This document shows, piece after piece, positions 2,761 to 4,476 of a stretch of 40,116 nt of DNA. The position numbers and the translations under genes are program-made. Each line of letters begins with the position of its first letter. Position 1 is the first letter of the stretch. This DNA is from a phage, in the NCBI GenBank assembly GCA_011944185.1, contig GCA_011944185.1_3921.1; one strand, given 5' to 3'. The notes under the pieces were generated by a model, which was not told the origin of the DNA, searched no databases, and was given only the letters and a program-made list of their open reading frames with translations.

Positions 2761-2837
2761 GCACCTATAGCCCAACTGGTAGAGGCAGCAGACTTAGAAT
2801 CTGCTCAGTGTGAGTTCGAATCTCTCTAGGTGTACCA
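2761..2837 (+). tRNA. tRNA with Leu anticodon TAG but short (5-nt) variable loop
   Basis: acceptor gcaccta/taggtgt; anticodon stem gcaga/tctgc with loop cttagaa; T-loop TTCGAAT; discriminator A; 74 nt. Confidence 0.65.
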
Positions 2838-2844
2838 AATTAAT

Positions 2845-2920
2845 GCAGGTGTAGCAAAATGGTTATGCGGCTGACTCTTAATCAGTAAGACGATGGGTTC
2901 AATTCCCTCCACCTGTACCA
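2845..2920 (+). tRNA. tRNA-Lys (anticodon CTT)
   Basis: acceptor gcaggtg/cacctgt; anticodon loop ctcttaa; T-loop TTCAATT; CCA encoded. Confidence 0.75.
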
Positions 2921-2926
2921 AACAAT

Positions 2927-3002
2927 GGGGTCATAGTTTATATGGTTAAAATTCGAGTTTTGCAAACTTGGGAACCGAGTTCAATTCTCGGTGACTCCAC
3001 CA
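2927..3002 (+). tRNA. tRNA-Ala (anticodon TGC)
   Basis: acceptor ggggtca/tgactcc; anticodon stem cgagt/acttg with loop tttgcaa; T-arm CCGAG-TTCAATT-CTCGG; CCA encoded. Confidence 0.85.
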
Positions 3003-3008
3003 ATTAGT

Positions 3009-3083
3009 GCATCCATAGTTTAAACGGGAAAATTACAGTCTTCCAAACTGAGGTTGAGGGTTCGATTCCCTCTGGATGCTCCA
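3009..3083 (+). tRNA. tRNA-Gly (anticodon TCC)
   Basis: acceptor gcatcca/tggatgc; anticodon loop cttccaa; T-arm GAGGG-TTCGATT-CCCTC; CCA encoded. Confidence 0.85.
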
Positions 3084-3089
3084 AACAAT

Positions 3090-3166
3090 GCTGCTTTCGT
3101 ATAATTGGCTATTACACATCCCTTGTAAGGATGGAAATGCAGGTTCGAGTCCTGTGAGCAGCACCA
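3090..3166 (+). tRNA. tRNA-Thr (anticodon TGT)
   Basis: acceptor gctgctt/gagcagc; anticodon stem catcc/ggatg with loop cttgtaa; T-arm GCAGG-TTCGAGT-CCTGT; CCA encoded. Confidence 0.85.
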
Positions 3167-3262
3167 ATTCAGAGGTCAAGTGAAAGACCGCTTTGAGTCA
3201 ACTGAAGACCGTAACAAATTCCACGAAGTTGAGTTAGCGGCACAACTTCAGACCTCTTTCAT

Positions 3263-3337
3263 ACTCGCTTAGTTTATATGGTAAAACATCACCCTTATAA
3301 GATGAAGAAAAAGGCTCAAGTCCTTTAGTGAGTACCA
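3263..3337 (+). tRNA. tRNA with anticodon TAT (Ile-like, would read AUA), atypical T-loop
   Basis: acceptor actcgct/agtgagt; anticodon loop cttataa with stem tcacc/gatga (one C-A mismatch); T-loop CTCAAGT; discriminator A; CCA encoded. Confidence 0.55.
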
Positions 3338-3338
3338 T

Positions 3339-3416
3339 GTTCCAGTATCCCAATTGGCAGAGGATGCAAGCTCAAACCTTGTATTAGTGACGGTTCGAAT
3401 CCGTCTTGGAACACCA
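3339..3416 (+). tRNA. tRNA with Leu anticodon CAA but short variable loop
   Basis: acceptor gttccag/ttggaac; anticodon stem gcaag/cttgt with loop ctcaaac; T-arm GACGG-TTCGAAT-CCGTC; discriminator A; 75 nt. Confidence 0.65.
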
Positions 3417-3421
3417 ATTTT

Positions 3422-3497
3422 GCAGGATTAGTTCAAATGGAAAGAGCAACAGTCTACGAAGCTGTTAATAGGGGTTCGAATCCCTTATCCTGCGCCA
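3422..3497 (+). tRNA. tRNA-Arg (anticodon ACG)
   Basis: acceptor gcaggat/atcctgc; D-stem gttc/gagc; anticodon loop ctacgaa; T-loop TTCGAAT; CCA encoded. Confidence 0.85.
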
Positions 3498-3514
3498 GAT
3501 AAAAAGGTGATACT

Positions 3515-3757
3515 ATGCAAACATTAACAGTAGTTGAACATGAAAACTGTGAGAGTATTGAGTTTGTCAGGGTCATTGGTGTTGAACACCACATTTTCTT
3601 AAAAGTGGGATACTTATGCGACCCCGCTAGAGTAGAAAGATTTATACGTGATTGTTTTGGTGGTAGACATCTGAAGAGTGTTATTTTTGAGACAGTTTTA
3701 CCAGAAGGTTTAGAAACGAATAATAACATTTACCTCCTTACGAGGATTAGACAATGA
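3515..3757 (+). CDS. hypothetical small protein (80 aa)
   Basis: ORF with AAGGTGA 6 nt upstream of ATG; stop overlaps the start of the next ORF (ATGA). Confidence 0.45.
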   Translation: MQTLTVVEHENCESIEFVRVIGVEHHIFLKVGYLCDPARVERFIRDCFGGRHLKSVIFETVLPEGLETNNNIYLLTRIRQ

Positions 3758-4311
3758 GATACTTAAAGTATGCTTCATGGATTTTCTTAGCTTTGTTAGA
3801 GCCATTTGCAGCAATCTTAGCAGTTATCTTAGCACCTTTTGTAGTTCCATTCTACAGTGAGAAGAAAGGACACTTACCTTTCGGGTTCAGATGGATGGAG
3901 ACATATGACAACCCAATTGATGGTGATGAAGGTCACGTTAAAAGATGGGCTAATATTAGATGGATTGGTAAACTAGGTGTCTACATGCAAAGAGTCGGAT
4001 GGCTCTGGAGAAACAAAGCTTATAACTTCTCTTACCATGTATTAGGAAGAGATGTAAGAGATGTTACTAAGTGGAAAGGTAATATCAACGTAAGTTCTAA
4101 CCCTGAAGATAATCAGACTGGTTATCTCCTAATGTGGAACAGTAATGCTTGGGGATTATTCGCTTTTATCCCATCAATTAAAGTCTTCGGTAAACAGTTT
4201 TACTGGAGAATTTATGTTGGATGGAAACTTAAAAGTGTTGTCCCAGAAGAAAGAGCATTCTCAAGGGAAAGAGTTATGTTGGCATTCTTTATTCATCCAC
4301 TGAGAAAGTAA
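3754..4311 (+). CDS. hypothetical membrane protein (185 aa)
   Basis: hydrophobic N-terminus (WIFLALLEPFAAILAVILAPFVVPF), Trp-rich; start translationally coupled to the upstream ORF. Confidence 0.5.
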   Translation: MRYLKYASWIFLALLEPFAAILAVILAPFVVPFYSEKKGHLPFGFRWMETYDNPIDGDEGHVKRWANIRWIGKLGVYMQRVGWLWRNKAYNFSYHVLGRDVRDVTKWKGNINVSSNPEDNQTGYLLMWNSNAWGLFAFIPSIKVFGKQFYWRIYVGWKLKSVVPEERAFSRERVMLAFFIHPLRK

Positions 4312-4319
4312 AGATTTAA

Positions 4320-4395
4320 AGGGGATTAGTTTACAAGGTTAAAACCTCGGTCTTTGAAATCGAAGAAGTTGGTTCAATTCCAACATCCCCCGCCA
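4320..4395 (+). tRNA. tRNA-Gln (anticodon TTG)
   Basis: acceptor aggggat/atccccc with 1:72 A-C mismatch; anticodon stem tcggt/atcga with loop ctttgaa; T-arm GTTGG-TTCAATT-CCAAC; CCA encoded. Confidence 0.75.
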
Positions 4396-4397
4396 AT

Positions 4398-4476
4398 GCT
4401 CCATTACTCCAATTGGCAGAGAGGCCAGACTTAAAATCTGTGTTATGTATCGGTTCGAATCCGATATGGAGTACCA
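4398..4476 (+). tRNA. tRNA with Leu anticodon TAA but short (7-nt) variable loop
   Basis: acceptor gctccat/atggagt; anticodon loop cttaaaa; T-arm ATCGG-TTCGAAT-CCGAT; discriminator A; 76 nt. Confidence 0.65.

Follow-up and report, generated by a model that had tools for sequence, protein, structure and literature searches.

The 40,116-nucleotide (nt) stretch of phage DNA analyzed here (the window; GenBank assembly GCA_011944185.1, contig GCA_011944185.1_3921.1) carries, within a large transfer RNA (tRNA) array, three genes with the leucine anticodons UAG, CAA and UAA that lack the long variable arm of class II tRNA-Leu. We consider these genes, with a probability of about 0.8, to be functional type I (class I) tRNA-Leu isoacceptors that would be leucylated by the bacterial host's leucyl-tRNA synthetase (LeuRS). 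The phage that carries the window is a Felixounavirus, kin to Felix O1 and wV8, and the three genes are named "tRNA-Leu" in existing GenBank records. An earlier note on this DNA had offered two readings, namely that the genes are charged with leucine despite their class I shape or that they carry a different identity. The first is favored here, as the identity set of LeuRS has been kept, the combination of bases involved is exclusive to tRNA-Leu among the tRNAs sampled and published isotype models rank Leu first for near-identical homologs.

The three genes were identified by ARAGORN, by the Rfam tRNA model (RF00005) and by a cloverleaf parse from both ends of each gene, with all three methods in agreement (Table 1) and all Rfam scores above the gathering score of 29 bits (E-values 1e-10 to 4e-7). 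Including the encoded CCA, the UAG, CAA and UAA genes are 77, 78 and 79 nt long, respectively, and 74, 75 and 76 nt without it. Each was parsed into a 7-base pair (bp) acceptor stem, 5-bp anticodon and T stems, a 7-nt anticodon loop with U33 (anticodons at 2795-2797, 3373-3375 and 4432-4434), the T loop UUCGAAU, A73 as discriminator and an encoded CCA. The variable loops consist of UCAGU (2805-2809, 5 nt) in Leu(UAG), AUUAGU (3383-3388, 6 nt) in Leu(CAA) and GUUAUGU (4442-4448, 7 nt) in Leu(UAA). All three have the form of type I tRNAs, in which the variable region is ~4-5 nt, shorter than 10 nt and free of a stem-loop; the 6- and 7-nt loops stand at the long end of the class I range and cannot form an arm. 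A variable stem-loop of more than 10 nt, as expected for class II, was found in none of them. The dimensions reported in the earlier note (74-76 nt, variable loops of 5-7 nt, canonical anticodon loops, A73) were therefore reproduced, and the variable stem-loop of 13-20 nt that a re-fold might have uncovered did not appear in the parse, as gene lengths of 74-76 nt leave no room for one. The two tRNA-Ser genes and the tRNA-Tyr gene of the same array, used as internal controls, do keep long arms, as had been claimed.

Table 1 Type I tRNA-Leu genes of the window and the long-armed tRNA genes used as internal controls.
Feature	Position	Strand	Basis
tRNA-Leu(UAG), type I	2761..2837	+	ARAGORN tRNA-Leu(tag); Rfam tRNA 57.3 bits; parse
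tRNA-Leu(CAA), type I	3339..3416	+	ARAGORN tRNA-Leu(caa); Rfam 44.0 bits; parse
tRNA-Leu(UAA), type I	4398..4476	+	ARAGORN tRNA-Leu(taa); Rfam 47.5 bits; parse
tRNA-Tyr(GUA), 15-nt variable arm	657..744	+	ARAGORN, cloverleaf parse; internal control
tRNA-Ser(UGA), 20-nt variable arm	2417..2506	+	ARAGORN, cloverleaf parse; internal control, class II form retained
tRNA-Ser(GCU), 21-nt variable arm	5500..5592	+	ARAGORN, cloverleaf parse; internal control

Beyond this common plan, each gene has features of its own. Leu(UAG) has a G1.U72 wobble pair, a U.U mismatch in the T stem (U50.U64) and A37 where the host has G37. Leu(CAA) has C38 at the position of host A38 and starts 1 nt after the preceding tRNA, and Leu(UAA) has a G1.U72 pair like that of Escherichia coli leuZ, a C27.U43 mismatch and the bases A36A37A38.

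Leucine identity in E. coli depends on A73, the A15:U48 Levitt pair, G18G19, A20a, U8:A14 and tertiary contacts of the D loop with the T loop, while LeuRS requires neither the anticodon nor the long arm, and arm-less minimal tRNA-Leu stay active (PMC9976931). In a structural alignment, the D arms of all three phage genes matched those of E. coli leuZ, leuX, leuW and leuQ position for position, with a 3-bp stem, an N13.A22 mismatch and the layout A14 A15 Y16 U17 G18 G19 Y20 A20a G21. The individual arms are GCC-C-AACUGGUAGA-GGC (2770-2786) in Leu(UAG), UCC-C-AAUUGGCAGA-GGA in Leu(CAA) and CUC-C-AAUUGGCAGA-GAG in Leu(UAA). U8, U48 (at the end of the variable loop) and A73 are present in all three genes, so that both the discriminator base and the tertiary core (U8:A14, A15:U48, the G18G19 register and A20a) correspond to those of a LeuRS substrate. 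The UAG, CAA and UAA anticodons read Leu codons, the anticodon itself not being an identity element for LeuRS. Features of other identities were absent: the three genes have neither the long arm nor the G73 of tRNA-Ser, with A73 instead, and the G3:U70 pair of tRNA-Ala is replaced by 3-70 pairs of A-U, U-A and U-A.

The specificity of this set of bases was assessed using ~1,040 distinct tRNAs parsed from sampled viral and bacterial loci. The Leu-type D arm in combination with U8, U48 and A73 occurred in none of the ~760 non-Leu tRNAs sampled. The same signature was found in 111 of 123 long-armed tRNA-Leu, 126 of 150 short-armed tRNA-Leu and all three window genes, counts that are inflated because the scan pattern required GGTAGA, which leaves the zero among bystander non-Leu tRNAs unaffected. 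Isotype scores from tRNAscan-SE were taken from a 2025 paper on Shigella phage Sf14, which makes no mention of the variable region (PMC12482277); the Sf14 genes differ from those of the window by 1 (UAG), 0 (CAA) and 1 (UAA) nt. Leu ranked first for all three Sf14 homologs, the outcome that the isotype check proposed in the earlier note required for a Leu identity, with scores of 67.4 for Leu_TAG (followed by Ile2 at 65.7 and Lys at 63.4), 49.1 for Leu_CAA (next Lys, 36.1) and 60.2 for Leu_TAA (next Lys, 54.2) (PMC12482277).

A number of observations weigh against leucylation by the enterobacterial enzyme or against intact function of the genes. The type I tRNA-Leu(CAA) of Streptomyces coelicolor is charged by its own LeuRS and not by that of E. 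coli (Fan et al., NAR 2019, PMC6614811). The C-terminal domain of E. coli LeuRS contacts the variable arm in crystal structures (PMC12360207), and charging efficiency may therefore be reduced where the arm is missing. The substitution of A37 for G37 in Leu(UAG) and of C38 for A38 in Leu(CAA) predicts the loss of m1G37 or i6A37, and the U50.U64 and C27.U43 mismatches interrupt stems in two of the genes. Minimum-free-energy folding gave the cloverleaf for two of the three genes, missing Leu(UAA), with z-scores of -0.16, -1.78 and -1.59. In our own isotype hidden Markov models, in which the anticodon and variable region were masked and the Leu model was trained on long-arm viral Leu only, that model ranked first, second and second for the three genes, in a test of low power that was right for only ~9 of the 25 window tRNAs used as controls. 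Weak thermodynamic folding is usual in AU-rich tRNAs. The failure of the S. coelicolor gene with E. coli LeuRS may be explained by the Streptomyces-type genes recovered here, from which two determinants of E. coli are missing that have been kept in the phage genes. Furthermore, three unrelated E. coli phage lineages keep only short-armed tRNA-Leu, which argues that such genes work in E. coli.

If the genes were not leucylated, another synthetase could charge their class I bodies, and UUA, UUG and CUA would then be partly recoded or mistranslated in infected cells. This would fit a class I shape that is atypical of bacterial tRNA-Leu and an A73 that is common to many E. coli isoacceptors, along with the small tRNAscan-SE margins for Leu(UAG) (Leu 67.4, Ile2 65.7, Lys 63.4; PMC12482277) and the Lys and Ile models that scored slightly above Leu for two genes in our own weak test. 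We nevertheless regard a non-Leu identity as highly improbable, since the Leu-specific D arm together with U8, U48 and A73 was absent from all ~760 non-Leu tRNAs, G3:U70 is found in none of the three genes and nearly all other E. coli synthetases that use A73 need anticodon bases absent here (PMC9976931). Recoding of ~55% or more of Leu codons would also rewrite nearly all proteins, whereas those of the window are ordinary homologs of Felix O1 proteins.

Conservation among related phages was considered next to the identity of the genes. For Leu(CAA), identity is 100% between the window, wV8 (Felixounavirus), Mordin and Sf14 (Mooglevirus) and SUSP2 (Suspvirus). Leu(UAA) has 98.7-100% identity over wV8, Mordin, SUSP2 and Sf14, and 216 of 264 phage records contain a copy with 99% identity or more. 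Many other array tRNAs fall to 64-90% identity across Felixounavirus, Mooglevirus and Suspvirus, and we count the conservation of Leu(CAA) and Leu(UAA) past their neighbors as support for probable selection. For Leu(UAG), the wV8 copy is 100% identical and the Sf14 copy is 1 nt off, while Mordin and SUSP2 have a different, also short-armed Leu(UAG) at this position. The latter genes (Mordin 4800-4877, SUSP2 3543-3620) are 78 nt long, are syntenic with window 2761-2837, have ~72% identity at most to any window tRNA and contain a D arm of 18 nt in which positions 11 and 24 appear mismatched. An unrelated Leu(UAG) in Mordin and SUSP2, together with the window-type gene in Mooglevirus Sf14, suggests cassette-like replacement of single tRNA genes within the array.

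As Leu(CAA) and Leu(UAA) are essentially invariant across Ounavirinae, covariation among close relatives was unusable and a wider family was taken instead. This set comprised 72 non-redundant (<88% identity) type I tRNA-Leu genes from phages and bacteria with equal D-arm length. In total, 98.5% of cells were paired, including 496 double-change cells, compared to 42-48% when the 3' partners were slid, and U8, A14, A15, U48 and A73 were invariant (A73 in 72 of 72).

These results bear on a further alternative, that the genes are not used in translation at all and are instead decaying pseudogenes or tRNA-like RNAs acting as decoys or processing signals. Decaying members do occur in the array (1740-1818 and 3263-3337, described below), two of the three Leu genes have stem mismatches and the folding energies are weak. 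However, Leu(CAA) and Leu(UAA) are kept near-perfectly over three genera while their neighbors diverge, T loops, anticodon loops and encoded CCA ends are intact, the tertiary and identity positions are invariant, the cloverleaf is backed by family-wide compensatory changes and the anticodons fit the codon demand of the phage. Loss of function in translation therefore has, in our estimation, only a few chances in a hundred.

Codon demand was evaluated over the 33 long open reading frames (ORFs) of the window, in which Leu is encoded by UUA (30.7%), CUU (25.8%), CUG (13.1%), CUA (12.7%), UUG (12.0%) and CUC (5.7%). Together, the three phage anticodons cover ~55% or more of these codons. In E. 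coli, CUG accounts for roughly 50% of Leu codons and CUA for ~4%, and UUA, UUG and CUA are read by single-copy minor isoacceptors. UAG, CAA and UAA are exactly the anticodons of these minor host species, and the Sf14 study came to the same conclusion from codon usage (PMC12482277).

A route from gene to function can be proposed for functional type I isoacceptors. The genes would be transcribed within the tightly packed, same-strand array of 25 tRNAs, and host RNase P and 3' trimming would mature the transcripts, whose CCA is pre-encoded. E. coli or Salmonella LeuRS would then recognize A73 together with the form of the D/T-loop core (U8:A14, A15:U48, the G18G19 register and A20a) and attach leucine, with the anticodon and long arm left unread. 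In decoding, the UAA anticodon would be expected to read UUA and UUG, CAA to read UUG and UAG to read CUA (plus CUG). The predicted benefit would be a supply of UUA, UUG and CUA decoding to an AT-rich phage whose use of UUA and CUA greatly exceeds that of its host.

The distribution of short-armed tRNA-Leu was surveyed in viral and bacterial sequence collections. IMG/VR was scanned with a pattern that accepts both classes but is biased to GGTAGA D loops, yielding at least 120 loci with 177 tRNA-Leu calls. Among the matches listed, 45 of the 177 (~25%) have variable loops of 4-7 nt, six have mini-arms of 9-10 nt and the rest have at least 11 nt, compared to short variable regions in 0 of 42 tRNA-Ser and 1 of 20 tRNA-Tyr from the same viral sample. 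The short-armed viral tRNA-Leu belong to at least three body families and are often the sole Leu genes of their array. A 9-nt variable region, UCUUCGGGU, was observed in Leu(UAG) genes at four IMG/VR loci (L008, L048, L096 and L124); it could form a 2-bp stem with a UUCG-type loop and is possibly an intermediate between long arm and short loop. Cultured carriers of short-armed tRNA-Leu include Pseudomonas phage vB_PseuGesM_254, Mycobacterium Bixzunavirus and a cyanophage and, among phages of E. coli, the T5-like HdH2 and Seunavirus LNA4 (rV5-like), in both of which all Leu genes are 77-78 nt; hundreds of T5-like Salmonella and E. coli phages carry them too.

A second scan, of GTDB species representatives and for class I spacing only, also yielded at least 120 loci. 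Among the matches listed, most come from Actinomycetota (Streptomyces, Bifidobacterium, Gardnerella, Planktophila/Nanopelagicales (freshwater acI), Actinomadura and others), and type I Leu, usually with a CAA or UAA anticodon, is the sole tRNA at 93 of the 120 loci listed. The gene is chromosomal and single-copy in many Actinomycetota. Enterobacterales were not represented among the GTDB class I-spacing matches listed. The statement of the earlier note that bacterial and T4 tRNA-Leu are class II consequently stands for T4 (87 nt) and the four E. coli K-12 genes (85-87 nt) but not as a universal rule, as type I is frequent in phages and Actinomycetota. A literature search for explicit type I tRNA-Leu in phages found none among the papers covered, of which only the S. 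coelicolor paper used the term (PMC6614811). Overall, short-armed Leu genes are a widespread but barely described family that is common in phages and Actinobacteria.

The absence of the arm in tRNA-Leu, and its presence in the tRNA-Ser and tRNA-Tyr of the same arrays, may follow from the recognition rules of the host enzymes: Leu may lose the arm and Ser and Tyr may not because bacterial seryl- and tyrosyl-tRNA synthetases recognize the long arm and LeuRS does not. This permissive account fits the Leu-only shortening seen over ~240 viral genes of class II isotypes among the matches listed, and permissive (neutral) loss is the simplest account from which the reason for the missing arm can be inferred. 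Short-armed tRNA-Leu tend to have A9 and A59, and long-armed ones G9 and G59, a shift that suggests re-packing of the core after arm loss.

Conversely, the short arm could be an adaptation that allows tRNA-Leu to evade defense or toxin effectors of the host that read the arm, or an attack that the phage itself directs at host tRNA-Leu. Disabling of host tRNA-Leu would then leave Leu decoding in place, and the phage tRNAs would remain Leu acceptors. Several observations are in line with this. Short-armed Leu genes are strongly enriched in phage arrays (~25% of viral Leu listed), often include every Leu gene of a locus and fall into three or more body families. Genes of the two classes replace each other at syntenic positions (T5 versus HdH2), with a similar exchange of unrelated short Leu(UAG) genes between window and Mordin. 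The toxin MenT3 grips the long variable arm of tRNA-Ser (PMC11541572), and phage tRNAs escape anticodon nucleases via changes in the loop, according to work cited in PMC12482277. Against this, many Actinomycetota have a gene of this shape as a single copy on the chromosome, where no defense story is needed, and the asymmetry between Leu and Ser/Tyr is already covered by a dispensable arm and compact phage genomes. We know of no arm-dependent effector against tRNA-Leu in Enterobacteria. MenT3 itself discriminates against tRNA-Leu (PMC11541572), and the one characterized bacterial Schlafen cleaves tRNA-Lys, tRNA-Met and tRNA-Ala in the anticodon arm, with no specificity for type II (PMC13056530). 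An adaptive origin of the short arm thus appears unlikely.

A link to bacterial Schlafen enzymes was considered and rejected, given that type II tRNAs are cleaved by human SLFN11, whereas no type II specificity is seen in the characterized bacterial enzyme (PMC13056530). A bolder form of the adaptive account is a recurrent phage counter-measure, in which tRNA-Leu that can be charged by LeuRS yet are unseen by arm-reading effectors (host defense toxins or nucleases, or a phage attack on host class II tRNA-Leu) make Leu decoding autonomous to the phage. The repeated exchange of long-armed Leu genes for unrelated short-armed ones at a given position of the array would be accounted for in this way, although we give it roughly one chance in ten.

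The surroundings of the Leu genes place the window within its genus. Over the 2.4 kb around them, 93-98% identity was found to upwards of 200 Felixounavirus genomes, Felix O1, wV8 and KhF3 among them, and these relatives are myoviruses whose hosts are Escherichia, Salmonella, Shigella and Citrobacter. The array comprises 25 tRNA genes, packed into the opening 5.7 kb of the window and encoded without exception on the + strand, with gaps that are frequently just 1-8 nt and small ORFs scattered among them. In a promoter and terminator scan, promoter-like sites were not above shuffled frequency, and the sole suggestive sites flank the array (42-71 and 5835-5852). In wV8, the gene immediately upstream of the array encodes a DUF2828/vWA "RNA-binding protein".

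Two elements of the array appear to be in decay. The gene at 3263-3337 (+) was called tRNA-Ile(tat) by ARAGORN, whereas its ortholog in wV8, Mordin, SUSP2 and Sf14 is tRNA-Val(tac). It differs from the wV8 gene at two positions only: the anticodon has the change C36>T, and T54>C alters an otherwise invariant T loop (GGTTCAAG to GGCTCAAG). AUA makes up merely 3% of Ile codons in the window. Apparently, a Val gene is in decay or in transition to another anticodon in this isolate. The second element (1740-1818, +) is tRNA-like and received no ARAGORN call and an Rfam tRNA score of 31.7 bits; it has intact acceptor and T arms but no D arm, and an insertion of ~23 nt precedes the T arm. The anticodon stem-loop is near-identical to that of the tRNA-Arg(tct) at the same position in Sf14, Mordin and SUSP2, and the element overlaps the start of a 132-aa ORF (1785-2183) that is the counterpart of the HNH endonuclease region of wV8. 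An Arg(UCU) gene, disrupted within a hotspot of tRNA turnover, is the probable identity of this element. Between tRNA-Ile(gat) and this element, weak matches to tmRNA and permuted tmRNA (1433-1738, +) remained below threshold, with 16-29 bits versus a gathering score of 47. In T5, several stable tRNA-like RNAs are annotated within the phage's own array.

A Leu-like D arm (GAC-A-AAAUGGUAAA-GUC) was also observed in the putative tRNA-Glu(ttc) at 182-259 (+). Its entire acceptor stem (GUUCCAG/CUGGAAC) recurs in Leu(CAA), whereas its discriminator is G73, its variable loop measures 6 nt and the D-helix features of E. coli tRNA-Glu are missing. Glu isotype-model scores are low for every tRNA tabulated in the Sf14 paper (PMC12482277).

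If leucylated as proposed, the phage genes would be natural type I tRNA-Leu obliged to work with the LeuRS of E. coli and Salmonella, the best-studied LeuRS. For that reason, the weight of the long arm in leucylation and editing in vivo, and the core elements that make a type I body acceptable, could be tested with standard reagents. A trait spread over T5-like and rV5-like coliphages and Actinomycetota also matters for annotation pipelines, for designing compact orthogonal tRNAs and for models of tRNA evolution that treat the arm as a fixed character of Leu. Should arm loss be neutral, it would represent an under-reported regularity that follows from identity rules, by which Leu can lose the arm and Ser and Tyr cannot.

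Among known systems, the S. coelicolor tRNA-Leu(CAA) is closest in form, as it combines a Leu anticodon and a short variable loop with a D stem of 3 bp, GGUAGA in the D loop, UUCGAAU as T loop and A73, and its body plan (UA-GCCC-A..GGUAGA-GGC ... CAG. ...) is that of the window-gene family. In that organism, type I tRNA-Leu and its type II counterparts coexist under one LeuRS in one cell. The Streptomyces-type genes recovered here differ in having G15:C48 and a D loop that is 1 nt shorter, compared to A15:U48 and the E. coli D-loop register in the phage genes, and the Streptomyces gene is chromosomal and single-copy rather than part of a phage array. Fan et al., in the only experimental study of a bacterial type I tRNA-Leu met in the literature covered, termed it rare and described E. 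coli LeuRS as charging type II only (PMC6614811); type I tRNA-Leu, already known from S. coelicolor, is here extended to phages and many Actinomycetota and is far wider than that status implies.

The host isoacceptors leuZ (UAA), leuX (CAA) and leuW (UAG) have anticodons, D-arm architecture and D-loop sequence in common with the phage genes. E. coli class II tRNA-Leu likewise share U8, A14, A15, G18G19, A20a, U48 and A73 with them, and leuZ also G1.U72. They differ in a variable stem-loop of 13-15 nt, as opposed to 5-7 unpaired nt in the phage genes, in G9 versus A9, in T loops (UUCAAGU or UUCGAGU, with G59, versus UUCGAAU, with A59) and in G37 and A38, which are replaced by A37 in Leu(UAG) and C38 in Leu(CAA). 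The stem sequences are unrelated. T4 and T5 provide tRNA-Leu that are, like those of the window, array isoacceptors of E. coli phages, but these are class II (87 and 85 nt). Within the genus Tequintavirus, T5 has an 85-nt type II Leu(UAG) (11625-11709) and HdH2 a 77-nt type I gene (13838-13914), both beside tRNA-Ala; HdH2 has an additional type I Leu(UAA) that is absent in T5. Recent deletion of the arm from a host or T5 class II gene was rejected, as the stems are unrelated both between T5 and HdH2 and between the phage genes and E. coli. The sequences thus point to gene replacement or old divergence, rather than simple deletion, as the origin of these short-armed Leu genes.

A short-loop tRNA-Leu(TAG) was reported, in one sentence without analysis, from a horizontally acquired tRNA cluster of mycobacteria (Behra et al. 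2019, PMC6582537). Its setting is that of the phage arrays, with multiple tRNAs, an HNH endonuclease gene and a long-armed chromosomal isoacceptor alongside, although the host, unlike that of the window phage, is an actinobacterium. Animal mitochondrial tRNA-Leu are also type I, with identity resting on A73 and A14 (PMC9976931), but they come from an organellar system that is degenerate and AU-rich and has a LeuRS of its own, and they have no sequence relationship to the phage genes. Finally, engineered arm-less or minimal E. coli tRNA-Leu (Asahara 1993/1998, Tocchini-Valentini 2000, Larkin 2002) remain substrates of LeuRS, as summarized in PMC9976931. Like the phage genes, these molecules have no long arm and keep A73 and the D/T-loop core, but they are laboratory constructs, of which the phage genes look like natural counterparts.

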